A stretch of DNA of 59,356 nucleotides from a virus. Taxonomy: Duplodnaviria; Caudoviricetes. The notes under the pieces are model-generated. The model was not told the origin of the DNA. It saw only the letters and a list, made by a program, of their open reading frames with translations, and made no database searches. Location of the stretch: the IMG/VR virus record IMGVR_UViG_3300034073_001486, positions 1 through 59,356 of that record. One strand, given 5' to 3'. Shown here in pieces: positions 6,951 to 56,231 of this stretch (position 1 is the stretch's first letter; every line of letters starts with the position of its first letter). The translations under genes and the position numbers were made by a program.

Positions 6951-8936
6951 TCATTGTCCTTCGGGAGGGGCCTGATCTGGAGCCGGCTGACCGGGCGGAG
7001 GGGGTGGTGGTGGCGGGATCTGATAACCAGACACATCCATCTGGTTGACCTTGCCCCACGCATCCATGAGCGAGTTGAACAGCTCGGGGCGACCCGCCTG
7101 CATGAGGCCCTGAGCCACCGGCATGATGATCTGCAAGAAGTTGTTGAGGTTCTCGGTCTTGGTGGCGATGTTGGGCTTACGCGCGCTCCCAGCCTCCACG
7201 CGGTAGGAGTACTCGCGGACAATCTCGTCCGGGCCCTCGCCCTGGACGTGCATGCCCCACGCCTGCGCCGCCATCGGCCCGAGAATTGGGACAACATCCT
7301 GCGGATAGATCAGCCACCGAGCCAGCAGCGCTTCCTTGCGGGCGACCTCCGAGAGGGCGTCTTCCAAAATCGAAGCATAGTCGTCGGGCCTGACCGAGAT
7401 TTGCTCGCTCTTCACGGTGGCCTCTGCCGCCGATCTGAAGGATGCCCTGGTCATGCCATAAATGAGTTCTGTCAAGCCCACCCGGCGGTCGAACAGCGAA
7501 GTGACCTCGGAGATGATCTGGTACATGTCCGTGGTCACGCCCGGCGTCTGGAACACCGAGATCACATCGTTGACATTCCGGCCGATGGCCTCAGAGATTT
7601 CAACAATCTTGAATCCATTTTCTGCCTTCTCAAGAATCTTGGCCTTGAGATCCGGGTCGGCGGCCTTCGCCACGCCGATCATTGTCTGGCTGCTGGTGGC
7701 GATCCGCTGGGCCAAAAAGCTCATCGCCCAGTTAATGAATCGCAGCTCACCGATACCGGGCCGGATCAAAGAGATGGGCCAAGAGTAGCCGGGCTTGCCG
7801 TGCCATGCCAGGAGCGTGAACGGCCATCCATTCGGCTCGGCCCAGAAGGGGATGGGCCACTGAGCGGCCATGAAGAAGTTCTGCGGGATGCCCGTCTCGT
7901 CGACTGGCTCCTGTAACAGGGCAGGGGGGAGGTTCAGCGGGAAGTCCACGCCTTCGGCCACAACGATGTAGCAGTTTGGCCCAAGGGAGTCGAACTTGCC
8001 CTGGAGTTCCTTGTCGGCGTTCTTGAGCCGATCCCCGAATCCGGTCTTGGAGTAAATCTCCCAGTAGCAGATCAAGTCGTTCGTCTTGCCGCTCTTCCGC
8101 TTGGTCTCATAGCCTCGGTCGCTCTGGTCGGCCCGGGAGGCGTAGGACTCAATGTGACCGCGCAGGTCTTCCCGATTCAGTCCAAACTTCGCCGCCACCT
8201 CGTCGATGGGCTGCGTCCGCTTGCGAGCCGCCCAGCGGATGTCCTCAAACTCATCGGCGTCCGGATCCCACACCAGATTATCCACGGTGTCGTAGAACGA
8301 TCCGGCCATCTTGGTCTGCGAGCCAGGGGGCTGGAAAAGCTCATGCCACCACACGCCCGCGCCTTTAATAAACGCCTCTTCCACCACCTTGCGGCTGTGC
8401 TGCTTGAGGTTCAGTTCATTGGGTGTGTAGTTCAGATAGCTCTCCAGCAACTGGGCGATCACCTTGCGGCGCTCCCACATCATCTGCTGCTGCTGGAGGC
8501 CCTGCTGGTACATCATCATGCCGGGGTCGGGCATCATCACCGGCTGTCCATCGGGGCCGACGACAGGCTGGCCATCAGGCCCCATCTGCGGCACCGGCGG
8601 CTGGGGCTGAATCCCCAAGAGCGCCGGGCCGACGATCGGGTACTCCTTGGGATGCACCGTCCGCGTGGGATTGCGGTGGTGGATGACCGCAGTGAAGAGG
8701 CGCACGGCCTCCCACACACGGTTCACAGACATCCGGAAGGCCGGCGGGTCCATGCCCTTGTTGTAGCCCCGCTCACCCCGAGCCAAGACCTCTTTCCACA
8801 TGACATCCGGGTCAGAGGCGTAGAAGCCCATGGCCTCGTCGGCGTCTAGCTGAAAGGGTCGCTTGTGCTTCTCCGCTTGCTTGATGCACTCAAGCCAGCG
8901 GGTCACAATGGGGCGCAGCGGGTTTTCTTCGGCCAT
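6951..8936 (-). CDS. Portal protein
   Basis: 661 aa; follows TerL; portal-like SAAEATV clip region and Pro/Gln-rich tail. Confidence 0.75.
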   Translation of the reverse strand: MAEENPLRPIVTRWLECIKQAEKHKRPFQLDADEAMGFYASDPDVMWKEVLARGERGYNKGMDPPAFRMSVNRVWEAVRLFTAVIHHRNPTRTVHPKEYPIVGPALLGIQPQPPVPQMGPDGQPVVGPDGQPVMMPDPGMMMYQQGLQQQQMMWERRKVIAQLLESYLNYTPNELNLKQHSRKVVEEAFIKGAGVWWHELFQPPGSQTKMAGSFYDTVDNLVWDPDADEFEDIRWAARKRTQPIDEVAAKFGLNREDLRGHIESYASRADQSDRGYETKRKSGKTNDLICYWEIYSKTGFGDRLKNADKELQGKFDSLGPNCYIVVAEGVDFPLNLPPALLQEPVDETGIPQNFFMAAQWPIPFWAEPNGWPFTLLAWHGKPGYSWPISLIRPGIGELRFINWAMSFLAQRIATSSQTMIGVAKAADPDLKAKILEKAENGFKIVEISEAIGRNVNDVISVFQTPGVTTDMYQIISEVTSLFDRRVGLTELIYGMTRASFRSAAEATVKSEQISVRPDDYASILEDALSEVARKEALLARWLIYPQDVVPILGPMAAQAWGMHVQGEGPDEIVREYSYRVEAGSARKPNIATKTENLNNFLQIIMPVAQGLMQAGRPELFNSLMDAWGKVNQMDVSGYQIPPPPPPPPGQPAPDQAPPEGQ

Positions 8937-16613: not shown

Positions 16614-17465
16614 CTACTGCTGCTCCTGCATCGCACCAGCAGCCATCGGGGCAAGAAGCCCATACTTTCGCAGGATGCGGATGGAGTCTTCGGTGCCGGG
16701 GTACATCACGTACACCCCAGTGCCCACGTCCATCCCCGGCACGCCGGCGTCGAAAAGTTCCCTCGCCGCTCGGTCGCCGCCAACGGCATCGAACATCTTG
16801 TGGTCAACGCCTAGCCCAGCATCTTTGGCAAAGGCGTTACGCAGGAGCCCGTACACCTCCTTGCCCTTCATCATGTCCGGATACTCGTCGGCAAGCGCCA
16901 GTAGCTCCATTCGCTCGTCTCGGTCCTTCACGCGGCCAAACACGCCCCGCAGGCGTTCCAGCACATCTGGGCTCACCGGCTCGTCGTAACGCAGGAGTGC
17001 CTCTCGCGGATATTCGATATCCACTTCGTACGTGCGGCCCACCTTGTGCGGCAACTTGCCGTACAGCGACAGCGTCTCCTTGTCCAGCCGATCCAACACT
17101 GCGAACGTCTCGTCGTCGGCTGGGCCTCGCAGACCCAGCACGCTATCGGGGCCGGGGTCGACGCTGCGCTCGTCGAACAATTTGTTGTATTGCCGCCGAA
17201 GCTCTTTGATTTTGTCAATGACGGCCTGGGTTTCCGGATCGCGATAGACGCCGGGGCGAAGGTCTTCTCCAGATGGCAGAAACTGCTTCGTCTTTGGCTC
17301 GGCATCGGCAAAGTACCCGCCGCGACCATACATCTGCTCCCCAGCGCCCTTGCCCATGTGTGTCGAAAAGTCAAACCTGTCAAAGTCGTACGGGCTGGCG
17401 TGGTACGCACGGATGGTCTGCCGTACGGCGTCTCCGAGTTCATCGGCGTACTGACTAACGGGCAT
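16614..17465 (-). CDS. ADP-ribosyltransferase-like protein (polyvalent-protein ART type)
   Basis: AYHASPYDFDRFD...GKGAGEQMYGRGGYFAD and YEVDI motifs. Confidence 0.6.
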   Translation of the reverse strand: MPVSQYADELGDAVRQTIRAYHASPYDFDRFDFSTHMGKGAGEQMYGRGGYFADAEPKTKQFLPSGEDLRPGVYRDPETQAVIDKIKELRRQYNKLFDERSVDPGPDSVLGLRGPADDETFAVLDRLDKETLSLYGKLPHKVGRTYEVDIEYPREALLRYDEPVSPDVLERLRGVFGRVKDRDERMELLALADEYPDMMKGKEVYGLLRNAFAKDAGLGVDHKMFDAVGGDRAARELFDAGVPGMDVGTGVYVMYPGTEDSIRILRKYGLLAPMAAGAMQEQQ

Positions 17466-18180
17466 AGCTCGGCTCCGGACTGTTGCGAAGACGCCGGATC
17501 GTTTCTCCGGCTTCGTCGACTAGATACGTTGGGGCGCCTCGGCCGTAGGCGGCAGCATCTCCAGTACGGCCCAAGAGGCGCAGCACATCGTCGGCCCGAT
17601 TGGCCACTGCTCCCGCCATCTTCAGCGGCATGACGGGGGCTACGTATCCCAGCGGCCCAGCGATAGGGGCGGTGATCCAGGTCTCGGGATCAGTAAGCAG
17701 ATCGAACGCCATGATGCTGGTTGGCGACACGCCGTTCTTCGCAGCCCGAGGACGCCAGTCATCTGGAGAGCCGGGTGTGCCGGCGGCTGCCATCGGAGCC
17801 AATCCGGCGACGGGAGTCCGCATGGCAAGGCCAAGAGCGTTGCCGTAGTTGCCGGAGTTGGCCTCTTGGACCGCACGCAGGCCGGTGTCACGCATCCGCG
17901 AGCCAAACGCCAATGCGTAGTTGACGGCCGCTTCCTCGGCATCAAACGCTTCAGACGAACGACGGGGCGACAGCTCGTCCATCACCATCTCCATCCGCAG
18001 GGCCCGAGGGTCAACAGTAACCCCGCGCTCCTTGTCCCAGATGGGCTCGTCATGCATGGAGCGGAAGGCTTGGTAGAAGGGCGACGAGGTCTTCTCGTTC
18101 CACTTGGCCCGCTGGTATTCCAAGTCCTCCAGCCGCCTGTCCGGCGAGCCCCACATCCAGTCAGACCATGTGTCAGCCAT
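17455..18180 (-). CDS. Hypothetical protein, possibly internal virion protein
   Basis: 241-aa ORF; DLLTDPETW motif resembles EVLLDPTTY in the 1236-aa protein. Confidence 0.65.
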   Translation of the reverse strand: MADTWSDWMWGSPDRRLEDLEYQRAKWNEKTSSPFYQAFRSMHDEPIWDKERGVTVDPRALRMEMVMDELSPRRSSEAFDAEEAAVNYALAFGSRMRDTGLRAVQEANSGNYGNALGLAMRTPVAGLAPMAAAGTPGSPDDWRPRAAKNGVSPTSIMAFDLLTDPETWITAPIAGPLGYVAPVMPLKMAGAVANRADDVLRLLGRTGDAAAYGRGAPTYLVDEAGETIRRLRNSPEPSYAR

Positions 18181-18455
18181 CAGCAGTTCCACGCTCGCAG
18201 GGACTTGTTGATCCGTGAGTCGGGGTCGTTGGCCGTCTCCTTGCTGGTCAGCTTTTCCTTCATGCCCTTCATCCTGGCACAGAAGGAATCACGCCTCGGG
18301 CCGCCCTCCGGCTGCGGGGCCTTGAGGTTCGCCCCATGCTCGCGGTTGTAAGCGGCGCGTCCCTTGGCGTTCAGCCCGCCATCGGGATCTTGGCCTTCCT
18401 TGCGGGTCCACAGCCCAGCCCGCAGCTTGCGGATCTTGTCACCGTCCCTGTCCAT
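18180..18455 (-). CDS. DUF6321-like small basic phage protein
   Basis: RKEGQDPDGGLNAKGRA...RRDSFCARMKGM...DPDSRINKSLRAWNC. Confidence 0.75.
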   Translation of the reverse strand: MDRDGDKIRKLRAGLWTRKEGQDPDGGLNAKGRAAYNREHGANLKAPQPEGGPRRDSFCARMKGMKEKLTSKETANDPDSRINKSLRAWNC

Positions 18456-28809: not shown

Positions 28810-28883
28810 GTGAACTAGCAGATTTCTTGGTCGGCTCGGCCGGGGTGATCCTGGTCCTGTGGTTCTCGTCACGCGGTGGGTGA
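28806..28883 (+). CDS. 25-aa hydrophobic peptide MSELADFLVGSAGVILVLWFSSRGG
   Basis: GGAGGTG RBS, ATGA coupling. Confidence 0.45.
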   Translation: MSELADFLVGSAGVILVLWFSSRGG

Positions 28884-28887
28884 CACC

Positions 28888-29679
28888 ATGATCTACGGCT
28901 ATGCCCGTGTGAGCACGGACGAGCAGTCGGATTCGATCACGGCTCAGGTTGCCACGCTGAAGCGGTTCCTTGCCGAGTCAGGCATGGAGTCCGGAGGCGT
29001 GTTCGCAGATGAGAACGTGTCGGGCTCCGGCATCTGGTTCCGGAACCGGCCGCAAGGGAAGCGGGTGTACGACGCCTTGGCCCCGGGCGACATCTTGGTC
29101 GTCACGGTGCAGGACAGACTCACCCGTAACCTTGCGGACTGGGCCACCATGATGGAGGCGAGGAGGAACATCGGCTGGCAGCTATACATCCTCCAGGCGG
29201 GCCGCTACATCCAGAGTCCCGAGGATGAGATGGTCTACGGCATGCTCGCCTGCGTGGGGGCCTATGAGCCCAGGCGTACCAGCGCCCGGGTCAAGGCCGT
29301 GGCCGAGCATCGTCGCAAGCACGGGCTACCCTATGGCCCGAGCCGCCCGGTCGGATGGCAGAGCAAGGACGGGCAGTACATACCCCTGCCGGCGGAGCGG
29401 GCCATTGCCGACGAGGCGTTACGACTGCGAGAGCAGGGCGTTACTTACCCGGCAATCGCTTTGCGGTTTTGTCACAAGGGCTACAGGAAGCCTGGGCGTT
29501 CCGCCCGGTCGGCTGGCTGGTACTCCCCCGTAGATGTACGGAGTCTTTGTCTCGCGGCTGGAGCCGGATATCCAAAGATTCCGCGATCCGTTTGGAAAGT
29601 TTCTGCGACCGCAGAGAAGCTATGCGCAGAGGTATCTGGTGGTCCTCGGCCAGCTTCCGCAGCGTCGATCCCCGCATGA
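28888..29679 (+). CDS. Serine recombinase (resolvase/invertase family)
   Basis: YGYARVSTDEQ, DENVSG, RP and DRLTR motifs. Confidence 0.9.
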   Translation: MIYGYARVSTDEQSDSITAQVATLKRFLAESGMESGGVFADENVSGSGIWFRNRPQGKRVYDALAPGDILVVTVQDRLTRNLADWATMMEARRNIGWQLYILQAGRYIQSPEDEMVYGMLACVGAYEPRRTSARVKAVAEHRRKHGLPYGPSRPVGWQSKDGQYIPLPAERAIADEALRLREQGVTYPAIALRFCHKGYRKPGRSARSAGWYSPVDVRSLCLAAGAGYPKIPRSVWKVSATAEKLCAEVSGGPRPASAASIPA

Positions 29680-30076
29680 AGCGATCCCAGGCCAGCTCCT
29701 GATCCTCATCGTCCAGCTCCTCAATCGCCAGCCGGACATGGTCCAGCTCGTCGAACATGGGCTTGAGATCAGCCGCCTCTTCCAGCGTCAGCTTGGTTTC
29801 CGCTGGCTGCCTCGTCTCCTTCTTGATCCACTTGAGCATCCCGTTCAGCATGGCCCTGGCGAAGTAGGCTTTCGGATACGGAAGCTTGGTTTTATCGTAC
29901 GTTCGGGCGGCTTTCGTCAGAGCTAGCAGACCTTCGGCCTCCAGGTCATCGACGAACAGGCCCCGCTGCCACGCCGGGCGGGACTGGACAAAGTAGCGGG
30001 CGAGGATCTTGGCGAGCGGGAAGTACTCAGCCGCCAGTGCCTGTCTTGTTTTTGAGAGCTTCGATCTCTTTCTCAT
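29441..30076 (-). CDS. Phage sigma-70-family factor
   Basis: Region 2 DDLEAEGLLALTKAARTYD...YF; region 4 HTH TLRKLAEDHQI. Confidence 0.8.
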   Translation of the reverse strand: MRKRSKLSKTRQALAAEYFPLAKILARYFVQSRPAWQRGLFVDDLEAEGLLALTKAARTYDKTKLPYPKAYFARAMLNGMLKWIKKETRQPAETKLTLEEAADLKPMFDELDHVRLAIEELDDEDQELAWDRFMRGSTLRKLAEDHQIPLRIASLRSQKLSKRIAESLDIRLQPRDKDSVHLRGSTSQPTGRNAQASCSPCDKTAKRLPGK

Positions 30077-30254
30077 GGTGATCTAGCCGGGCCTCATGGT
30101 TCTGAATGGCCTGATGCAACTCTTGCACCAGCTCTGGCAGGTGTTCGACCGAGGCGGCGATGATCGCCACCTTGGTGTGTATAGAGACCGCCCACGGAAT
30201 GACGGCCGCCGCCACCGAGATCAACACCAACCATGCTTCTGCCTCCAAGCTCAT
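30027..30254 (-). CDS. Small TM plus coiled-coil protein (holin/spanin-like)
   Basis: N-terminal TM segment followed by HEARLDHHE coiled coil. Confidence 0.55.
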   Translation of the reverse strand: MSLEAEAWLVLISVAAAVIPWAVSIHTKVAIIAASVEHLPELVQELHQAIQNHEARLDHHEKEIEALKNKTGTGG

Positions 30255-30484
30255 TCGTCTTCCCTCCCGACCATCATCAACAACATGAGACCCGCATACG
30301 GATGCAGCCGACCATCGGCCACATGCTCGCGTATGATCCAGGTCGCTCTCTCTTGTTCGTCATCGGGGTACTGGTAAACGTGTGTGTGTCCGTCGATCAC
30401 GGCGATGAGTCGATTGCATCGAACGCCTCCGCTCTCAGACGGCTGACCCCATGCCGACGATTCAATATCCATCGTTCGATCCAC
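30251..30484 (-). CDS. Hypothetical protein
   Basis: ATGA coupling with the downstream gene; start uncertain. Confidence 0.5.
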   Translation of the reverse strand: MDRTMDIESSAWGQPSESGGVRCNRLIAVIDGHTHVYQYPDDEQERATWIIREHVADGRLHPYAGLMLLMMVGREDE

Positions 30485-30714
30485 CGTGCGATGAGCGAAG
30501 CCAAGAGGGGGAGGACGAAGGCGATGAAGAACGGGTTGAGCGTGGGGTTTCTGCGTCGGTACTCTTCGATGATTCGGTGGGCATAGGTGCTGTCGGGCTC
30601 GTCCGGCGCAAGCATGATTGCCACCAACGCCACGCCCCTTGCACGTCGACTGAGTCGTTCGGTTCTCGTTGCACGGATCGCACGCTCCGCTATCGCTTCG
30701 GCTTCAGTTCGCAT
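30397..30714 (-). CDS. Membrane protein
   Basis: FFIAFVLPLLASLIARWI hydrophobic segment. Confidence 0.55.
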   Translation of the reverse strand: MRTEAEAIAERAIRATRTERLSRRARGVALVAIMLAPDEPDSTYAHRIIEEYRRRNPTLNPFFIAFVLPLLASLIARWIERWILNRRHGVSRLRAEAFDAIDSSP

Positions 30715-30989
30715 TTGCCATCCGGGCAGGCATGGAGTTTGGCGGGCGGGTGATGCACGGCACCCTTCAGCTTGCACTCGCAGTCGGGCGGGCAGGGGCA
30801 GGGGGTCTTGTGACCGTCGCCGTGGGTGATCATGCCGTTGACGCAGAGGCCGCAGCACTTGCCCGCGTCGGGGTTCTCCATGCGGGCCGTGTTCACAACG
30901 AACGCAGCCTCGGCCGCCACCACGGGGCGGAGGTCTTGGGGCTCCGGCGAGATGAGCCGGCCGATGAACAAGAGAACTTCACTCACCAT
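30690..30989 (-). CDS. Small Cys-rich, possibly exported protein
   Basis: CCGLC...GDGH...CPCPPDCEC...CPDGKC. Confidence 0.65.
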   Translation of the reverse strand: MVSEVLLFIGRLISPEPQDLRPVVAAEAAFVVNTARMENPDAGKCCGLCVNGMITHGDGHKTPCPCPPDCECKLKGAVHHPPAKLHACPDGKCELKPKR

Positions 30990-31932
30990 GCTTCAGCATT
31001 CCTATGGCGCCGTAGTCGGGCAGGTGTTGAGGCGGGTAGCCGTCGATTGATCCGTACACCCAGCAGTCACCCGAGCGGACGCAGACATCGAAGTCTTCGT
31101 CCGACGTGACAATCATGCCGGGCACTTGGGGCGGGTAGTCCTTGGGCCAATCCTTCACGGGCTGGTTCCATGGACCCCAGCTATTGACGATGAACCAGAC
31201 ACGGAAAGGCCAGTGTTCCTTGGTGTCGTCGTAGCCAAGGATGGCCATGTCATGGTTCCAGCCTTTGGCCGCTCGCTCATGCGCGTTGCGTCGGCCAGGG
31301 GCGGCCTGCCATGCGGCGTACTGCCCAGAGTGGGCGGCGTAGCCGTTGTACAAAGCGTCTAGCAGATCGTCTTGGGACCGGATCAGCGTGATGCGGCCGA
31401 CGTTGTTCTGCTTGCAGAGGTCTTGTACCTCTTGTGGTACACCCGTTCGCCCCCAGCGTGCGCCGAGGGAGCCGTTGTACTTGGAGAGATCGACAACGTC
31501 GTAGTCATGGCGGGCCAGGAAGCCGACATCTCTCTCAAACTTGGAGGCTCGGGCCGGGCTCATGCCTTGACCGCCGTGTCCCCGAGCCCCATAGGTCGGC
31601 TCGGTGGCGCCACGCTTGAACCAACTGGCGGGCTCGCGGTTCACCAGTAGCTGAGTCGCACGCACGGCATCACGGCAATTGCGAGAGCCGTGGGAGACAC
31701 AGTCTCCAGTGGTCTGCCTTTCGCTGTAGGCGTCCTTGTCGAAGGCTAGAACATACTGCCAGAGCAGGGCACGCTTGCCGATGCCGGAACCTTTGATGTT
31801 CGGTTCTTCGTAATATTGATACCGCTGCCCCTCCAAGAACTCGGCCGTGTCCCGAGGGGAGTTGATGTACCCAGGCATGCCATCGTCGTACGCCTTGAGC
31901 AGCGAGAACGGTGTGTCTAGTTCGTCCGGCAT
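30979..31932 (-). CDS. Papain-like (C1) cysteine peptidase
   Basis: QTTGDCVSHG (Q, C), WNHDMAILGYDD (H), IVNSWG (N). Confidence 0.85.
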   Translation of the reverse strand: MPDELDTPFSLLKAYDDGMPGYINSPRDTAEFLEGQRYQYYEEPNIKGSGIGKRALLWQYVLAFDKDAYSERQTTGDCVSHGSRNCRDAVRATQLLVNREPASWFKRGATEPTYGARGHGGQGMSPARASKFERDVGFLARHDYDVVDLSKYNGSLGARWGRTGVPQEVQDLCKQNNVGRITLIRSQDDLLDALYNGYAAHSGQYAAWQAAPGRRNAHERAAKGWNHDMAILGYDDTKEHWPFRVWFIVNSWGPWNQPVKDWPKDYPPQVPGMIVTSDEDFDVCVRSGDCWVYGSIDGYPPQHLPDYGAIGMLKHGE

Positions 31933-32324
31933 TGCACCTCCACGGCCTTGCAACCCTGGACGATCTTGGCCACCAGCTCGGGCGTCATGGGCACATCCGT
32001 CTTCGGGAAGTACTGCGACAGCGTGGCTTCGATGGCGACATCCAAGCCGGGGTACTTGCCTTTGACGGGGGCGGCGCCGAGGGCCAGCGTGTCCCGATGG
32101 ATCAGACGCCAGACGCCGGTCGTTGCGATCAGCCGGCCGCCGTCCCGCTGCGTGATATCTGCCAGAGCCCGGTACATATCCGCCACGTACTGCCGGTCAG
32201 CCTTGGAGGCCGAGGCCAGGGCCGTGGCCACCTCGCCCGTGGCCGGTTGCTTGGCCGGTTCCCTGGCCGGCAGAAACGTGTAAGCTACGAGAGCCGTAGC
32301 TAATACGATTGGCAGGTGCTTCAC
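31917..32324 (-). CDS. Exported or membrane-anchored protein
   Basis: N-terminal signal/TM MKHLPIVLATALVAYTFLP. Confidence 0.7.
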   Translation of the reverse strand: MKHLPIVLATALVAYTFLPAREPAKQPATGEVATALASASKADRQYVADMYRALADITQRDGGRLIATTGVWRLIHRDTLALGAAPVKGKYPGLDVAIEATLSQYFPKTDVPMTPELVAKIVQGCKAVEVQCRTN

Positions 32325-32548
32325 TGGTCCACCTCCAGCAAGGCCCCTAGCAGGACGTTACACGCCTCCTTGACCTCGGGCGTAGGGTGAGCCTCTCGGA
32401 CAGCGATCACCGCTTGTACGTGATCCAGTAGCGTCTGGGAGGGTGCCTGGAACTTAGGCAGTGAAACCTTGTGCAGCAGTGGTCGGCCGTACACAAACAG
32501 GCAGACGGCGGCGAGGGCGGAAAGGGCGAGGATCTGGGGCAGGCTCAT
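32321..32548 (-). CDS. Small membrane protein
   Basis: N-terminal TM segment. Confidence 0.65.
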   Translation of the reverse strand: MSLPQILALSALAAVCLFVYGRPLLHKVSLPKFQAPSQTLLDHVQAVIAVREAHPTPEVKEACNVLLGALLEVDQ

Positions 32549-33486
32549 AGTATGCGGGCTCCGGGGATAAACAGGGTGACTCCGCCGGGCTCGGCCTGCG
32601 CTTTGACCTGGGAGCCAATGAGCTTGGCCGGGTCCATCAGGCCCCAGCCGTAAGTGTGGTCATGCCCAGGCGGGCCGGCGTCCCGAGCCGACTCGGAGAG
32701 GGCGGCAATGATGTCCGCATGCGTGGCCGGTCCATGGTGCGAGATGTACAGAGCAAGCACGCCGGCAACGAACGGGGCAGCCATGGAGGTTCCCGAGATC
32801 GTCGCGTACCCATCGGCCAGCCAAGTGGAGGTGATGTCCTGGCCGGGGGCGGCGACCACAATCTCTTTGCCGCGCGAGCTGAAGTCACAGATGTTGCCAT
32901 GCTTATCCACGGCACCAACAGCGATGGTCTCATGGAACGCGGCCGGGAAGTTCACGCTGCCGCCGTCGTTGCCGGCGGCGCAGATGACGATCACCCCCTT
33001 TCCAGTTGCAAACTGAATGGCCTGATGCACATTCGCACTGGGGCTTGGGCTACCCAGCGACATGCAGATCAGGTCGACATCAGCCTCGGCGGCGTAACGC
33101 ACCGCCGTGGCAACCGCATCGTTACTCCCCATCCCCGAATGACCAAGCACCTTTAGCGCGATGATCTTGCAGCCGGGGGCGATGCCCTTGGCCGGGCCCT
33201 TGGCCGCCCCGATCACGCCGGCGACGTGAGTCCCATGCCCGAGCGTGTCGTACACCTCGGAGTCAGAGCTGAAGTTCCGCCGGTCAACCACGTTCTCCAA
33301 GGCGTAGTGAGGGGCCACGCCGCTGTCGATCACAGCGACCGTCACCCCCTCGCCCTTGGTCCGCTGCCACAACTCCGGGACGCTGTAGCTTGTCAGCGCC
33401 CAGTCAACGCCGTCCTTCTCGGAGTGCGGGACATGCTGGAGATCCACCCTGTAGGGAGGGAGGTGTACGTAGTCCAGCCCTTTCAC
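32545..33486 (-). CDS. Subtilisin-like (S8) serine peptidase
   Basis: VAVIDSG (D), GHGTHVAG (H), AAGN, SGTSMAAP (S). Confidence 0.95.
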   Translation of the reverse strand: MKGLDYVHLPPYRVDLQHVPHSEKDGVDWALTSYSVPELWQRTKGEGVTVAVIDSGVAPHYALENVVDRRNFSSDSEVYDTLGHGTHVAGVIGAAKGPAKGIAPGCKIIALKVLGHSGMGSNDAVATAVRYAAEADVDLICMSLGSPSPSANVHQAIQFATGKGVIVICAAGNDGGSVNFPAAFHETIAVGAVDKHGNICDFSSRGKEIVVAAPGQDITSTWLADGYATISGTSMAAPFVAGVLALYISHHGPATHADIIAALSESARDAGPPGHDHTYGWGLMDPAKLIGSQVKAQAEPGGVTLFIPGARIL

Positions 33487-33818
33487 TTTCGCTTGCAGGC
33501 CATGGCTTCCAAGATGCTGATCACAACGGGCAACAGGACTTCAACGATCAGCTTCCAGTCCACCCCAAGCGCCGCAACGTCTGCGCCCATGGCGAACGAC
33601 ACCTCGGCGTCATCGTCCACAGACCAGTAGTCCGATGCCAGCAGCTCCATCACCTCGTCGTTACTCTCAACGACAGGCAGGACAAGCCGGGCAATCTCAT
33701 CGACCAAGACCCACTTCTCCAAGAGCGTCATGTCCTTGGAGAAACGCTTGCCGACTGACACTACCTGGAGCAGGAGTTCACGGTGTTGGATCAACCACTG
33801 CAAGATTTTGAGATTCAT
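33483..33818 (-). CDS. Membrane-associated protein
   Basis: C-terminal hydrophobic helix; ATGA coupling to the S8 gene. Confidence 0.65.
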   Translation of the reverse strand: MNLKILQWLIQHRELLLQVVSVGKRFSKDMTLLEKWVLVDEIARLVLPVVESNDEVMELLASDYWSVDDDAEVSFAMGADVAALGVDWKLIVEVLLPVVISILEAMACKRK

Positions 33819-34179
33819 CTGTCTCGCCTTTCTTCGCGCGGATGCACGCAATCGCCACGGCCGCATGTCCCGCGATGTCATATAAAGTCTCTATTACTAG
33901 AGTGTCCATATTGCGGGCATCGCCACGCAGGCGTCGGCACTTCTCGCCAATCCTCGCAAGCTGGTACACCCACGGTTCAATTCCGTCCTCGGCCACTCCG
34001 AGGGCGTTCGACAACGGGCCGTCCTCCGGGCAGCCGTAGTACCCGCGCTTCCGGGAAAGCAGGGCGTACAGGTGATCACACACCGGGCGGTATGGGTCAG
34101 AACTGTCGGTCTCTTGCCGCTTTAACAATGCGTCCGTACTCCGCCCAGAAAGTCGCGTGATGCCAAGGGTCTTCATCAT
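33778..34179 (-). CDS. Nucleotide-modification-associated (Nmad1/DUF1599-like, MazG-related) protein
   Basis: LLSRKRGYYG...RIGEKCRRL...ETLYDIAGHA. Confidence 0.55.
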   Translation of the reverse strand: MMKTLGITRLSGRSTDALLKRQETDSSDPYRPVCDHLYALLSRKRGYYGCPEDGPLSNALGVAEDGIEPWVYQLARIGEKCRRLRGDARNMDTLVIETLYDIAGHAAVAIACIRAKKGETDESQNLAVVDPTP

Positions 34180-42803: not shown

Positions 42804-42863
42804 GGCTGTCCAACCGTGCCGATCCCCGCTGGAGCGTGGCTGACTCACCGAAGAGGGGCCACC

Positions 42864-43691
42864 ATGAAGATGACAGAACTTGCCAAACGGTACGCCAACC
42901 GCGTAGGGGCCGCACCCAGCTACCTGGAGCAGCTCTTGGTGCTGACCAAGCGGCTGGACTGGCAGGCCGAGGATATGACTCCCGACCTGATCGACGCCTA
43001 CTTGACCGAGTCCCTTCGACACTTGGCCTCCTCCACTGTCGACAACCACCGCCGCATGCTGCGTTCGCTACTCGCCTTCGCGGCCGAGGAGCGTTTGGTG
43101 GCCAAGAGTATACTCCGTCCTTTGAGGCGTGTCAAGCGAAATCCGCCGAGCCCGCGCGCTTGGAGTCATGCCGAGATCATCAAACTCCTTGAGGCGTGCG
43201 ATGGGCTGCCGGGCCGCACGCTTAAATGCGCGCTGGCTACGTTGATGCCCGCGTGGATACTGGCCGCCTACTCCACCGGCCTGCGATTGAACGACCTGCT
43301 TGCGATCCGGCATGACGACCTCCGTGGCAATCGGATGATGATCCGCCAACAGAAAACCAGCGAGCCGCACATTGTCTTCTTGGATGACAACGCACTCGCC
43401 GCAATCCGCAAACTCCCCGCGTGCGGGCCACGCATCTTCGGGGACTTGGTCGGCAGGTCACGCATCTTAGTGGCGATGCGGAAACTGGTCAAGCGTGCAG
43501 GTCTGAACGGCAGTACAAAGTATTTGAGACGCAGCGGAGCGACTTACTGTGAGGTCCATGGAATTGATGCCAGTCATCACCTCGGGCATTTGTCGCCCGG
43601 GATGAAAAAGTTCTATGTCGACAGGCTCTTGCTGGCCGAGGAGAGGCCGCCACAGCCCGTGGTTCCGCCGATCCCGCTTAGAGCTGGTTGA
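42864..43691 (+). CDS. int: Tyrosine recombinase / integrase
   Basis: STGLR, QQKT, YLRR, LGH and FY catalytic pattern. Confidence 0.85.
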   Translation: MKMTELAKRYANRVGAAPSYLEQLLVLTKRLDWQAEDMTPDLIDAYLTESLRHLASSTVDNHRRMLRSLLAFAAEERLVAKSILRPLRRVKRNPPSPRAWSHAEIIKLLEACDGLPGRTLKCALATLMPAWILAAYSTGLRLNDLLAIRHDDLRGNRMMIRQQKTSEPHIVFLDDNALAAIRKLPACGPRIFGDLVGRSRILVAMRKLVKRAGLNGSTKYLRRSGATYCEVHGIDASHHLGHLSPGMKKFYVDRLLLAEERPPQPVVPPIPLRAG

Positions 43692-52560: not shown

Positions 52561-53631
52561 TTAGGCCGGCACGGCCACACGGGCCTCTTGCCTGACAACG
52601 CCCTCCAAGGCAGCGCCTACGACCACGTCCTTCGTCTCAATGGCTGCCGACGTGGTAGTGGCAGTCACCGGAGTAATGGTCACCCCGGTAACAAATGTAA
52701 TGTCCACAATGCCGCCAGCAGTGATCGCACACGTCTCGGGGTCAAGGGTAAAGGTGGTCGGAATGCCAACAGTGTCCGTGGTGTACGAGATTTCACCGCC
52801 GGCCACTGACACCTCTGCCACTCCCGCCGTGGCGTATGTGATTCCGTCACGCACAACATTGACGCGCGGGTTGGCTCCCGAGAGATACGACAAGTTCCTG
52901 GCGACTACCCTGGCGTCCCTGCCGTCGCGGCCGTTTCGGCCAGGAATTCCTGGAAGCCCTGGCCATCCATTGAGGCCGTTCATGCCGTTCCTTCCAGGAA
53001 AGCCGTCGCGTCCGTTCTGGCCAGCGACGCCCGGAGCCCCTGGCGCACCACGGGCACCGGCTCCCCCCGGCGCGCCAGGCGGGCCCGCTGCTCCTGCCTG
53101 TCCGTCGCGGCCATCGCCGCCAGCTTGTCCCGGCAATCCGTTCAGTCCGTTAATGCCGTCGATGCCGGCCAAGCCGTCGCGCCCATCCCTGCCGTCGACT
53201 CCATCCGTGCCGGACGGACCAAGAAAGTACAGCTCGCGAGTGAACAATCGCTCGGTGATGGTTTCGCCGCCGAGATTGTTGCCGTTGCCGGTGCTGAAGT
53301 TGTTGACGACAAAGTTTTGGGTAGTCGGGAAGTAGAAGTTGTCGCCGCCGTAGTTGTAGGAGTTCCATTCGCTACTGTAGTCCGGCATGTCATAGAACGA
53401 TCGTTCGTCAAAAATGATGAGATCGCCGTACTCGTTGATGTTCCAGCCGTTGTTGTTGTAGACGCCGCGTCCGCCGGACTGTTGCTGTTGAGCTGGCTGA
53501 AGGTTGACGCCTCCTCGGTGCGTCAGCGGCTGGTTGCAGTTCCCCAGCGCTTGCGTAAGCTGCTTAATCGCCCCCGTTGGCAGCACCCCTCGCAGAGCAT
53601 TGATGACGGCCGGCGTCGACTGCGTCAACAT
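52561..53631 (-). CDS. Collagen-like tail protein
   Basis: 34 consecutive G-X-Y triplets encoded at 52915-53220. Confidence 0.8.
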   Translation of the reverse strand: MLTQSTPAVINALRGVLPTGAIKQLTQALGNCNQPLTHRGGVNLQPAQQQQSGGRGVYNNNGWNINEYGDLIIFDERSFYDMPDYSSEWNSYNYGGDNFYFPTTQNFVVNNFSTGNGNNLGGETITERLFTRELYFLGPSGTDGVDGRDGRDGLAGIDGINGLNGLPGQAGGDGRDGQAGAAGPPGAPGGAGARGAPGAPGVAGQNGRDGFPGRNGMNGLNGWPGLPGIPGRNGRDGRDARVVARNLSYLSGANPRVNVVRDGITYATAGVAEVSVAGGEISYTTDTVGIPTTFTLDPETCAITAGGIVDITFVTGVTITPVTATTTSAAIETKDVVVGAALEGVVRQEARVAVPA

Positions 53632-56231
53632 TACTCAGCGCCCTCCATGCCAATCCGATGGATAATCACGGCATCCGAGGCTTGCTCGCCCCCAAACGCC
53701 ACGGCGACATGCCGGTCGCCCCCAGATGAACGCGGGTCTAGGTGCCCCGAGTAGTAGGCGGCCGCGTACCCGTTGGCATCACCAAGAGACGACCGAGTCC
53801 GCTTCATGTTTAATGTGGCCTCTGTCGACCCTGCTATGGTCACAAAGCCTGACCCGCGATCCGTTGCGATGGCGTTTGCCCGGGGCGCCGCTGCGTTGTT
53901 GTAGTGCAAACGCACCCCAAGGTTGGCGTCCTGCTCTGTAGGCTGATAGACGACCGCCAGCGAACGGCTGCCGTCCTTGTCCGTGATGGAGAAGTTGCCG
54001 GAACGGAACTGGTACTGGACCGGCGTGCCGCCGTCTGACAGCCCCGTAAACTTCACAAACCCGCCGCCGCTTGTGCCATGGAGGTTCTGCATCCTAGTGC
54101 CAACCATCGCTTGGCATGCGGCCGTGACTGGCTCTGCGTAGCTCTCTTCCCACCACGCCTTTGTAGCAACGCAGTAGCACATCGCCCGCGACGGCTTGGC
54201 GTCAGACGACTGGCAATAGAAGAACCTTACGGTCCTGGTCGACATGTCGGCCGTGACGTGGAATTGGTCGGCCTTGGAGAAGTCGATGACGCCATCGCGC
54301 CAGAGGTTGTCGACCGGGGCCGACACAGCTTCCTCTGACGAGCCGTCGTAGGCGTACATACCATGCGTGTCGACCAAGAACGCTACGCCGCCCATTACGG
54401 CCCAGCAGCGGCTGTTGAGGACGCCGCGATACGCCCCAAGGACGATGGAAGCGTCGATCACCGGCTGGGCCACGTAATTGAGCTTATAGGTGTGCGACTG
54501 CTGCACCACCAGCAGCTCGGATGCCAGAGGAACCAAAGCGACGATTTTGTCTGGGGTGCCCGTGTTCTCTTGTACCACCAGCTCGTTGGACTCCGGCACG
54601 CTTTCCGGCTCGTCGATTTCGGAGTACATCAGGCTGTTGCGGCGTTCCCCCGAGGTGTCGACGGCATACCACGCCCGGTCTTGGAACATCACCGCCACGG
54701 CAAACTCTGGCGGCGGCGGTGCAAATCGCCGGGCGTTGATCTGACCGCTTGGCAGGGTAATGGGCATCAAGCCGTAGCCGCCCCGAGTTGCGTCCTTTAG
54801 CTCGTCGTCGCCTAGCGTATCGGTGTAGCTGCCCGTGAACGCCTCGTCCGTCCGCTGGATAGTCGCCACGCGGAACAGGATCACGTCCTGATTCGCAGTG
54901 GTTCTCCATAGCTCCATGGCAGACACGCGGTCATCCAGGCCGTGGTGTGCGAAAGACCACGCGATGCCGCCAGAGGCGTCGCCGGCGTCGACCTCAACCA
55001 GCTCCGAGATCGACGACGGGATAGGCTCACCGGCTGTGTCATCTATGTACCGGATGCAACACTTGTATGTCCCGCGAAGCCGCTGACCCATGGTGGCCAT
55101 GGCCTGAGCAGTTGTGTCCAGGATGATGGCAGATGGCCGGTCCTGATACTCGCCCCCGGCAAAGACAGCCACGGCCGCGACAGCCCCAGAGCCGTCAACC
55201 GATGCCGTGACGCCGGCGCCTGATCCGGTGGCGTCGGACACGGCAGGCGCGATGGTGATGATGGGCGGAACCATGTACCCGGTTCCGCCGGACGTGACCG
55301 TCACGGACGCCACGGAGTACAGCATGTCCACAGACAGGGAGGCCCCAGTGCCACCTCCGCCAACAATCGACGCCGTGACTCCGGCGGTTGTGGCGCCCGT
55401 CCCTGCGGCCAGAATCTGGATCGAACTAATGCGGCCAAGCGTGTCGACGCTGGCAACGGCGTTGGCGCCAGTCAGGCCCTGCGCCGTGGAGAAGACAACC
55501 GATGGAGATGTCGTTGCACTGGATGTGTACCCAGCGCCGCCGGCAGCGATAGCGACGGACTCTACTCTTCCGGAAATGCCTACCGAGAAGGACGCACCCG
55601 AAGCGATGCCTCCAGCGATGGAAACGCTCGGTGTAGCCTGATACCCAGAGCCGGGGTCTGTGATGCGAATCCGCGACACTCGGCCGTCCGAGATGTTGGC
55701 GACCGCTGTTGCAGGGGTGGTCGGCGTCCCCCCAGAAAACGCCACGGTCGGCACGTTGTTGTACCCGGCGCCGCCGTTAACGATCTGGACGCTTTTCACA
55801 AACCCAGAAGCCCCAGTAGTAAAGGCTGCGCATGTCGGCCCCCGGGCTGGCTTGTTGATGCCAATCGCCTCCACGGTCGCAGAGTCTCCATCCCACCGAA
55901 TCCCGCGCCCCATGCCGTCCACGCCGTACACGTCGTTGTAGCGACCCTTAAAGAACGTCATCGGCCGGGGCGGCCCTGTGTGGGCGTAGGCCGTAGCGGC
56001 TGCGCCCGTGCCGCCGCCGCCGGCAAACGAGACTGTGGCAGCGCCCGTAAAACCGCTCCCACCAGAGGCAACAACGACCGTCTCAACTTGGCCGCCCGAC
56101 AAGTGGGCGTAGGCTGTGACGCCAGTGCCGCCCGCAACGATCACCGTGGGCGGCGAGGTGTATCCGGTGCCTCCCGTTGTGACGGTGATCTTAGTCAGTC
56201 GTCCAGTGTTGCGGCTGCCGATCTGGCTCAT
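53631..56231 (-). CDS. Tail nozzle / stabilisation protein with inserted Gly-rich repeats
   Basis: Repeated GGxGY...PxV units, then beta-propeller-like FQDRAWY, LMYSEIDEPE. Confidence 0.7.
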   Translation of the reverse strand: MSQIGSRNTGRLTKITVTTGGTGYTSPPTVIVAGGTGVTAYAHLSGGQVETVVVASGGSGFTGAATVSFAGGGGTGAAATAYAHTGPPRPMTFFKGRYNDVYGVDGMGRGIRWDGDSATVEAIGINKPARGPTCAAFTTGASGFVKSVQIVNGGAGYNNVPTVAFSGGTPTTPATAVANISDGRVSRIRITDPGSGYQATPSVSIAGGIASGASFSVGISGRVESVAIAAGGAGYTSSATTSPSVVFSTAQGLTGANAVASVDTLGRISSIQILAAGTGATTAGVTASIVGGGGTGASLSVDMLYSVASVTVTSGGTGYMVPPIITIAPAVSDATGSGAGVTASVDGSGAVAAVAVFAGGEYQDRPSAIILDTTAQAMATMGQRLRGTYKCCIRYIDDTAGEPIPSSISELVEVDAGDASGGIAWSFAHHGLDDRVSAMELWRTTANQDVILFRVATIQRTDEAFTGSYTDTLGDDELKDATRGGYGLMPITLPSGQINARRFAPPPPEFAVAVMFQDRAWYAVDTSGERRNSLMYSEIDEPESVPESNELVVQENTGTPDKIVALVPLASELLVVQQSHTYKLNYVAQPVIDASIVLGAYRGVLNSRCWAVMGGVAFLVDTHGMYAYDGSSEEAVSAPVDNLWRDGVIDFSKADQFHVTADMSTRTVRFFYCQSSDAKPSRAMCYCVATKAWWEESYAEPVTAACQAMVGTRMQNLHGTSGGGFVKFTGLSDGGTPVQYQFRSGNFSITDKDGSRSLAVVYQPTEQDANLGVRLHYNNAAAPRANAIATDRGSGFVTIAGSTEATLNMKRTRSSLGDANGYAAAYYSGHLDPRSSGGDRHVAVAFGGEQASDAVIIHRIGMEGAE

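Follow-up and report, generated by a model that had tools for sequence, protein, structure and literature searches.

How does a tailed phage leave its host when no peptidoglycan hydrolase family can be recognized in its genome? The question is raised by IMG/VR record IMGVR_UViG_3300034073_001486 (Duplodnaviria; Caudoviricetes), a whole virus genome of 59,356 bp that was analyzed over its full length (hereafter the window). On its minus strand, the window carries a cassette of nine open reading frames (ORFs; 30027-33881), here lettered A to H with H' ahead of H, which encode a subtilase of family S8, a papain-like cysteine peptidase and several small membrane proteins. An earlier note, made from the sequence alone, proposed that the cassette serves lysis or envelope remodelling in place of a holin-endolysin pair, using two protease classes and membrane partners. 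Part of this proposal survives, as a second protease recurs in other lineages and proteins like H match holin families, but the core of the module is D-E-F and not S8 plus C1. We suggest that the cassette is a lysis module in which a periplasm-acting, divergent papain-family (C1-like) peptidase, protein E, replaces the endolysin. We give this reading slightly less than an even chance.

A divergent papain-family peptidase

Protein E (30979-31953, minus strand; 324 amino acids) is not assigned by family models. No Pfam family was matched at E<=0.01, Peptidase_C1 (PF00112) included, no PHROG was matched, and the 120 relatives listed have no precomputed Pfam domain except for one intein. The AlphaFold model of E (pLDDT 93, pTM 0.91) retrieves 107 matches at E<=0.001 from the PDB. 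The top-ranked chains are of the papain family (C1), with xylellain first (3ois, E=6e-8), at TM-scores of 0.5-0.66 and with 9-17% sequence identity to the solved structures. At the same threshold, BFVD returned 26 matches mostly named Peptidase C1 or papain-like. These also include phage proteins named 'Peptidoglycan binding-like' and 'N acetylmuramidase (Fragment)', which are automatic names and serve as a lead only. A profile built from 71 sequences of the E family weakly matches caricain (E=2.9e-4) and xylellain (E=6.1e-4, profile positions 75-257) among the PDB sequences, and nearly all of the 26 sequences at E<=1 are of C1 type. The residues expected of the active site are strongly conserved. 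C85 and H234 are invariant in the 71 relatives, Q80, S258 and W259 are kept in at least 90% of them, and N257 is kept in at least 90% of 14 relatives. By its modelled fold and its catalytic residues, E is a papain-family (C1-like) peptidase that lies outside the Pfam family model, and the identification of a papain-like enzyme with Q, C, H and N intact in the earlier note was sound. The protein has no transmembrane (TM) segment, no signal peptide and no recognizable I29 propeptide.

The E family is large and unnamed, with 898 matches in 90% clusters, 842 representatives when clustered at 50% identity and a presence on at least 587 IMG/VR contigs. A tblastn search of E against 50,697 cultured phage records found no match. 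Inteins with LAGLIDADG or Hint domains were observed in a number of relatives (P0121, P0126, P0130, P0125, P0109 and others), inserted exactly between D84 and C85, which makes the catalytic cysteine the +1 residue of splicing. Under a strict pattern, an intein at this site was counted in at least 21 of 150 representatives of the family, and P0125 has a second intein after the NSWG motif.

Partners with export features and single-chain fusions

The genes on either side of E encode proteins with features of export. D (31917-32324, minus strand; 135 amino acids) starts with a signal or anchor, after which comes a helical domain without a known fold. The AlphaFold model of D is a helical bundle (pLDDT 92.7) with 0 PDB matches at E<=0.001. 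F (30690-30989, minus strand; 99 amino acids) has nine cysteines and the conserved motif CxxC...HGDGH[KR]T.CP.C. Among 101 E loci, some of which are contigs fetched twice, a D-like gene lies at most 1.5 kb upstream of E in 86 and an F-like gene at most 1.5 kb downstream in 61. Each of the 70 distinct D-like sequences has an N-terminal hydrophobic anchor or a cleavable-looking signal. F-like proteins have a lipobox in loci L005, L006 and L008 (lipobox sequences LIAGC, FAAGC and VVGC), and a signal peptide together with a thioredoxin domain in L012 (Thioredoxin_2, 1.4e-10), with matches below the cut-off in L019 and L077.

In a number of relatives, the three parts are joined in a single chain. 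E is preceded by a fused D-like domain in P0147, P0170, P0172, P0183, P0194, P0144 and P0198, and followed by a fused F-like motif in P0147, P0198 and P0229. The order along the chain is N-terminal TM segment, D-like domain, E and F-like motif, in some cases followed by thioredoxin. The anchor is often a Gly/Ala-rich TM segment, and the fused representatives have no Pfam matches of their own. Because of the signals or anchors of D, the lipoboxes and thioredoxin domains of F and the TM-D-E-F fusions, we place the D-E-F system outside the cytoplasm, as far as sequence features can indicate. Endolysins are known for occurring within one enzyme family in signal-less (canonical) and signal-anchored (SAR) forms. 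The E family comprises both signal-less and signal-anchored forms and therefore resembles the endolysin pattern.

Other approaches to the partners added little. Neither D nor the F-like protein of L005 yielded a usable match in a protein atlas. A complex prediction of E with the D domain scored 0.00 and, having been run without controls, speaks neither for nor against binding. A programmed frameshift joining D to E was considered and rejected, as the offset between the D and E frames differs between the window and L001.

Search for peptidoglycan hydrolases

Pfam scans of 98 window ORFs (E<=0.01) revealed no peptidoglycan hydrolase family. Six-frame searches extended the screen to 39 E-bearing viral records, of which 31 are at least 90% complete, with four genomes of 158-171 kb included. 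Phage_lysozyme, Amidase_2, SLT, GH19, M15_4, M23, NLPC_P60 and Amidase_3 were each found in 0 of the 39 records, and CHAP, GH25, Muramidase and PG_binding_1 in 0 of five complete representatives. As a positive control, the identical pipeline detected an amidase family in both cultured phages searched (2/2). The negatives for GH19, GH108 and Muramidase are weak because their controls were silent in every control genome. GH108 appeared in two of the 39 records, both times below threshold. None of the related records has a match above cut-off to a peptidoglycan hydrolase family searched in it. The earlier note, which had recognized no lysozyme, amidase or peptidoglycan endopeptidase, is borne out by both screens, and the genome that it took for near-complete has a CheckV completeness of 100%. 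A search for Phage_lysozyme in five Planctomycetota genomes (0/5) was uninformative.

Several candidate hydrolases were rejected. The GH108-like stretch at 17620-17727 (plus strand) covers 35 residues, resembles an N-terminus and scores 15.5 bits against a cut-off of 21.2. It was dismissed as a chance match because it runs antisense to the gene at 17455-18192 and has no in-frame start codon before 17866. The GH108 match in genome G033 contains two stop codons. A protein of 866 amino acids (53631-56231, minus strand) matches phrog_1922, which is named 'baseplate hub subunit and tail lysozyme', through C-terminal repeats only. Its three tandem repeats of about 90 amino acids correspond to positions 817-911 of the 932 in phrog_1922, and the lysozyme domain is not covered. 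What looked like a holin and an endolysin-like pair in proviruses G844 and G845 reads, by sequence, as a small TM protein and a RusA-like resolvase.

The module in other phage lineages

Related modules were found in Planctomycetota metagenome-assembled genomes (MAGs), where L005, L006, L008 and L009 encode a small TM protein, D, E, a lipoprotein F, a tail-anchored G and a holin-like H. In L005, L008 and L009, the module is flanked by the capsid gene (Phage_capsid_4) on one side and the cement/head-tail joining genes on the other. In L006, it lies between an ORF of 681 amino acids read as primase-like and one of 442 amino acids read as ParB-methyltransferase-like. Among related loci that contain both the end of the capsid gene and the cement gene (n=64), these two genes are adjacent in 54 and three hold the module. 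The remaining loci have other inserts, including one ORF read as an HNH endonuclease. With both genes adjacent in 54 of the 64 loci, the module between capsid and cement genes is an insertion, and the gene orders indicate that it moves as a unit between genome contexts.

The position beside head genes raises the question of whether E (and S8) might be virion maturation proteases that process the prohead or tail proteins. A module that follows immediately on the capsid gene and precedes the cement/head-tail joining genes would suit such a function in L005, L008 and L009. The site is, however, one of insertion without a fixed position in the head block, the module is far from head genes in both the window and L006, and the partners of E have export signals. 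The C1 fold is also, to our knowledge, not that of any known prohead protease family. We consider virion maturation very improbable. The earlier note had doubted a prohead role given the distance from the capsid genes. In the window, the distance holds as far as it was checked with the portal gene (6951-8936), which is more than 20 kb from the cassette, but it does not hold for those relatives with the module between capsid and cement genes.

A second protease of another catalytic class adjoins the C1-like gene in independent lineages, being S8 in the window and trypsin-like or M10 elsewhere. Trypsin_2 proteins with N-termini read as signal peptides are encoded beside the module in L085 and L077 (phages of 166-170 kb), and L020 has a Peptidase_M10 protein with PG_binding_1 beside the module. 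Three genes downstream of the module of the 166-kb phage, L085 also encodes an 82-amino-acid Transgly_assoc protein with two TM segments (L085:7524-7772; PF04226, 1.7e-6), and this protein may add another membrane component to the cassette in its L085 version.

The slot between capsid and cement genes was also seen to hold a different gene pair. In L112 (9043-10616) and L169 (1593-3299), phages that share the L005 capsid type, it contains a gene for a secreted Cys-protein of about 190 amino acids and one for a thioredoxin-type (CxxC) protein with a C-terminal TM segment. The small Cys-protein of L112 has 569 relatives, two of them named Pirellulales MAG proteins, and one of 120 listed is precomputed as Peptidase_C39_2. 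It has no match in PDB sequences or in cultured phages. Given the L112/L169 pair, a cysteine peptidase plus thiol-redox pair looks exchangeable at this slot.

Organization of the cassette

All ORFs described in the earlier note exist on the minus strand, and its picture of a tightly coupled run is accurate, with neighbours overlapping by 4-169 nt. Transcription proceeds in the order A, B (S8), C, D, E, F, G, H' and H, followed by a sigma-70-family gene. S8, D, E, H and the sigma gene follow in identical order in 43 of 46 loci of the phage group of the window (genomes of about 57-63 kb), which answers the call for a conservation check. The three exceptions are interrupted by contig ends or an intein. 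The cassette accounts for five of the approximately eight strongly hydrophobic small proteins in the genome. The membrane proteins announced earlier are present as TM segments in A, C, G and H, with a weaker, signal-like N-terminus in D, and the Cys-rich small protein is F. A promoter and terminator scan gave only chance-level signal.

Protein A (33483-33881, minus strand; 132 amino acids) is tail-anchored by a C-terminal hydrophobic TM segment at residues ~102-130 and lacks a match in Pfam or PHROG. It is present in 39 of the 46 loci, and its gene is directly upstream of the S8 gene, which it overlaps by 4 nt. The boundaries of 30027-33818 proposed earlier are right at 30027. The other boundary is an internal ATG, and 33881 is the likelier start of A because homology in L001 and L004 reaches residue 2-3 of the 132-amino-acid ORF.

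Protein B is the S8 subtilase (32545-33486, minus strand; 313 amino acids). It matches Pfam PF00082 at residues 45-282 (E=4.1e-53; 181 bits against a cut-off of 21.8) over the full-length profile (1-288), and the six-frame search agrees. The catalytic residues are D54, H84 and S234, with N173 as oxyanion residue, within what we take to be the S8 motifs VIDSG, HGTHV, GTSMA and NDGG, respectively. The intact D/H/S triad reported previously, with about 45 amino acids ahead of the catalytic strand, is therefore present. B has neither a signal peptide nor a long prodomain. It matches phrog_3677 'protease' (E=7e-77), has homologues in 77 phage records (36-40% identity over 82-88% of the length), and S8 is found in 30 of the 39 related E-bearing viral records. 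The link of S8 to lysis is weaker than that of the C1-like E.

Between B and D, protein C (32321-32548, minus strand; 75 amino acids) has an N-terminal TM segment and occurs in 33 of the 46 loci. L005-type relatives have an analogous protein of 96-107 amino acids with an N-terminal TM segment at this position. G (30397-30858, minus strand) has an uncertain start and up to 153 amino acids, with a TM segment at 105-128 near the C-terminus (NPFFIAFVLPLLASLIARWIERWILNR). It overlaps F in a different frame, is conserved in L001, L003 and L004 and in 29 of the 46 loci overall, and L005-type relatives have a similar C-terminal TM motif. H' (30251-30484, minus strand; 73-77 amino acids) is small and soluble, conserved in 34 of the 46 loci and without a Pfam or PHROG family match.

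H (30027-30254, minus strand; 75 amino acids) combines an N-terminal TM segment with a coiled coil, is holin-like and occurs in 44 of the 46 loci. It matches phrog_1296 'holin' (E=6.6e-4) as well as DUF7365 (E=1.2e-4, below the cut-off of that family), and no Pfam holin family was matched. Among 34 H-like proteins, 21 match the phrog_1296 holin (best 4.5e-6), nine a 'hemolysin' PHROG (XhlA-type) and three Rz-like spanin PHROGs. All annotated matches outside phrog_1296 are thus lysis-related, being either XhlA-type 'hemolysin' or Rz-like spanin. The sigma-70-family gene (29441-30076, minus strand) overlaps H by 50 nt and follows the cassette in 44 of the 46 loci. It matches Sigma70_r2 just under the cut-off (E=4.8e-5) and phrog_234 'late sigma transcription factor' (E=1.9e-4). 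It also converges on and overlaps the gene of an opposite-strand serine recombinase (28876-29679, plus strand; Resolvase, E=2.4e-28). The sigma gene is context and lies outside the module.

Cassettes and their genes were occasionally seen in duplicate. The 117,778-bp IMG/VR record behind L002, L038 and L045 holds two different cassette copies, with E proteins 64% and 58% identical to that of the window, and on this account it looks like two joined phage genomes. In genome G002, the S8 gene is repeated at the two ends (541-1269 and 59449-60177), a sign of terminal redundancy.

Genome context and host

Structural PHROG matches, among those listed, are confined to 1-21.8 kb and 43.7-59.2 kb of the window. 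Replication, recombination and nuclease genes precede the cassette. A tyrosine integrase family was matched among the ORFs of 38.4-59.2 kb, and we take the gene to be the one at 42816-43691. With both a serine recombinase and a tyrosine integrase present, the phage looks temperate. No tRNA genes were found in a scan of the window, and most window ORFs have no function assigned by Pfam scans. Within 1-21801, the N-terminal domain of the major tropism determinant (Mtd_N) is recognized in two ORFs, at best with 2.4e-14, and Laminin_G_3 in one (7e-23). The Pfam lists for the window ORFs contain no reverse transcriptase family, so a diversity-generating retroelement is not evident.

The host is probably a planctomycete, as the earlier note had guessed. 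Eleven of the 19 E loci in species-representative genomes are in Planctomycetota MAGs (Pirellulales, Planctomycetaceae and Thermoguttaceae), and so are four of the six contigs of at least 100 kb with E, one of them a 7.8-Mb chromosome. On one Planctomycetota contig, a relative of the portal (32% identity) lies 12 kb from a C1-like gene. Direct host evidence is thinner for the clade of the window itself, consisting of one Pirellulaceae-binned and one Chitinophagales-binned viral contig plus the GC content of the genome (~61%). The portal has a single weak match among cultured phages, at 23% identity to a Microcystis phage. A host test with the portal found matches in two of 401 sampled Planctomycetota genomes and in one of 401 Bacteroidota genomes, which is the expected direction but too small a difference to count. 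The sole Bacteroidota match is the MAG that holds the related viral contig. Further members of the E family occur in MAGs labelled SAR202, Flavobacteriales, Aquaspirillum and Paludibaculum, so the family is not proven to be exclusive to Planctomycetota.

Some of the related genomes show additional planctomycete features. L093, a low-GC (36%) phage fragment with a D-E module, encodes a DUF1559 protein (L093:2071-3156; SBP_bac_10, 3.2e-23) with an N-terminal methylation motif (N_methyl). DUF1559 is presumably a planctomycete hallmark, greatly expanded there, and the gene may be host-derived. In each of the Planctomycetota genomes G040 and G041 (behind L009 and L017), two C1-like genes lie apart on different contigs, so a single genome may well contain more than one such prophage.

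The premise of a largely proteinaceous host envelope, on which the earlier note relied, is dated. According to PMC4432640, planctomycetes do have peptidoglycan, and the make-up of their envelope has been disputed for decades. The substrate of E could equally be peptidoglycan peptides. A 2025 review on Planctomycetota uses the word 'phage' once (PMC12673574). A literature search that covered titles and the opening lines of abstracts revealed no report of such a module or of a planctomycete phage lysis system.

A proposed lysis mechanism and its rivals

The cassette follows the logic of a lysis cassette, given a signal-less enzyme, periplasmic partners, a holin-like H, anchored fusions, mobility and no other recognized lysis enzyme. 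From this architecture we infer lysis itself, as well as the timing, export route, complex formation and substrate proposed here. E, and probably S8 too, would accumulate folded in the cytoplasm, as neither has a signal peptide. The signal-anchored D and the Cys-rich F would be exported beforehand, and the membrane proteins A, C and G would likewise already be in place. Late in infection, the holin-like H, perhaps together with G, A or C, would open the cytoplasmic membrane. E could then enter the periplasm, join D and F and cleave a load-bearing layer of the envelope, upon which the cell would burst. The substrate might be proteins of the wall, proteins that tether the outer membrane or the stem peptides of peptidoglycan. 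F would probably control the catalytic cysteine of E by redox in the oxidizing periplasm, a form of control suggested by the CxxC of F and the thioredoxin features of its relatives.

The wider proposal is possible, if somewhat doubtful: phage lysis enzymes might include a new, widely distributed class, the 'proteolytic endolysin', represented by D-E-F in Planctomycetota phage clades of 57-171 kb that lack a muralytic enzyme. Its parts would be a C1-like peptidase, a helical partner with a membrane anchor and a novel fold, and a redox-active partner that is Cys-rich or a thioredoxin. If true, either proteins hold together the barrier that has to be broken, or peptidoglycan cross-links are cut by a papain-family enzyme recruited for this purpose. 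The second protease that keeps recurring (S8, trypsin-like or M10) would then act as a co-lysin. Which layer of the planctomycete envelope bears the load would become apparent from a phage enzyme that has evolved to break through it. As a lysis enzyme, E would be the first papain-family equivalent of an endolysin, dependent on an anchor subunit acting in trans and probably governed by a thiol switch, and it could find use in lysing or protoplasting planctomycetes, which are genetically hard to handle. Should E have another function, an unrecognized lysis enzyme, also worth finding, must be present in these phages.

Several observations weigh against a lysis role for E. We know of no C1-family enzyme that cuts peptidoglycan. 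An unrecognizable new family of peptidoglycan hydrolases may be present among the hypothetical ORFs, and proviruses G844 and G845 (at least 95% complete) have the L005-type capsid but no E. H-like genes occur without E in five related loci. In the window itself, the N-terminus of D is signal-like but weakly hydrophobic and F lacks a lipobox. The cassette is also at a middle-like rather than a late position and follows the nuclease and recombination genes. E is 64-71% identical to its counterparts in L001-L004, with neighbours at 35-55%, and this conservation together with the frequent inteins is unusual for a lysis gene. The S8 gene is about 17 kb away from E in G029, G032 and G033, and the S8 homologues of the cultured phages Tsamsa (Bacillus) and MTATph1 (Moorella) are encoded among DNA-metabolism genes. 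Both of these phages carry ordinary amidases elsewhere, far from the S8 gene.

A number of these points would be expected if S8 and E were cytoplasmic proteases that act in host take-over, counter-defence or the cleavage of phage proteins. An unrecognized endolysin would then be encoded elsewhere, and the clustering with membrane genes would be incidental or regulatory. Both proteases lack signals, the cassette comes after nuclease and recombination genes, E is highly conserved and intein-bearing like core enzymes, the S8 homologues of Tsamsa and MTATph1 keep company with DNA-metabolism genes, and the many genome ORFs without an assigned function leave room for an endolysin. The partners of E speak for a different location. 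In the TM-D-E-F fusions, the E domain comes to lie outside the cytoplasm, 70 distinct D sequences have a signal or anchor, and F carries lipoboxes or thioredoxin domains of periplasmic type. A purely cytoplasmic function is thus quite unlikely.

Location alone does not separate lysis from a remodelling of the envelope without lysis. A periplasmic protease set might trim proteins of the host surface or periplasm in the course of infection or in lysogens, with lysis brought about by something else. Its purpose could be to destroy receptors against re-adsorption or superinfection, to dismantle surface structures or to ease the exit through a thick protein coat. The periplasm is indicated by D, F and the fused proteins in this case too, the phage is temperate in appearance, and the module behaves as an insertable moron at a middle-like position beside the sigma gene in the window. 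The secreted proteases of other lineages would moreover work before a holin opens the membrane. Unfused E and S8, however, have no signal peptide and can therefore enter the periplasm only once the membrane has been breached. H-like proteins also match holin families, and the genomes would still be without a recognizable lysis enzyme. We regard remodelling without lysis as unlikely, and compare the proposed lysis module below with systems of known or suspected function.

Comparison with known systems

By fold and by the order of Q, C, H and N-S-W, E resembles the C1 peptidases of MEROPS, such as xylellain, procathepsins B/L/K/X, Lpg2622 and Cwp84 of Clostridioides difficile, the latter described in its PDB entry as surface-layer associated. 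It differs from them in being phage-borne, in having an obligate separate partner (D) and in lacking a Pfam PF00112 match. A viral C1 enzyme is known in baculoviruses, whose cathepsin V-CATH liquefies the dead host together with a chitinase. A 'Viral cathepsin' fragment in BFVD matches E only at E=0.21. V-CATH belongs to an animal virus, is a secreted zymogen with a tissue target and no membrane partners, and is not closely related to E. Both are nonetheless virus-encoded papain-family proteases that break host barriers for release at the end of infection, a function that is proposed in the case of E.

The S8 subtilase is homologous to the phrog_3677 proteases of large Bacillus, Brevibacillus and Moorella phages, which are likewise without a known role. 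In contrast to these, the S8 gene of the window abuts D-E-F in a genome without a recognized amidase. CHAP and NlpC/P60 are clan CA cysteine peptidases that cut peptidoglycan peptides. They share with E a Cys-His chemistry on a papain-like core and serve phages in lysis, as is proposed for E, and they would be a precedent if E cuts peptidoglycan stems. E differs by its full two-lobed C1-type fold of about 250 residues with an N-terminal extension, and neither of the two families was detected in the searches described above.

The holin-endolysin-spanin cassette of Gram-negative phages is exemplified by S, R and Rz/Rz1 of lambda. The muralytic enzyme that defines it was not recognized in the window, where the enzyme of the cassette, E, is a C1-like peptidase that matches no peptidoglycan hydrolase family. 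D and F have no sequence match to spanins, D has no fold match and the F of the window has no lipobox. D and F also flank E, and are fused to it in relatives. The resemblance is in the architecture, with a signal-less hydrolase clustered with several small membrane proteins, among them the holin-like TM protein H. D has the topology of an i-spanin, the lipoprotein F of relatives has that of an o-spanin, and both kinds of cassette are mobile between genome contexts.

P1 Lyz and R of phage 21 are SAR endolysins, and P1 Lyz is held under disulfide caging. The D-E-F module differs from these in enzyme class and in having the D domain between anchor and enzyme. In the window, E has no hydrophobic segment and the anchor D is a separate gene. 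The fused relatives, however, have an N-terminal TM segment ahead of the enzyme as SAR endolysins do, and the cysteine and thioredoxin features of the module suggest a thiol-based control as in P1 Lyz.

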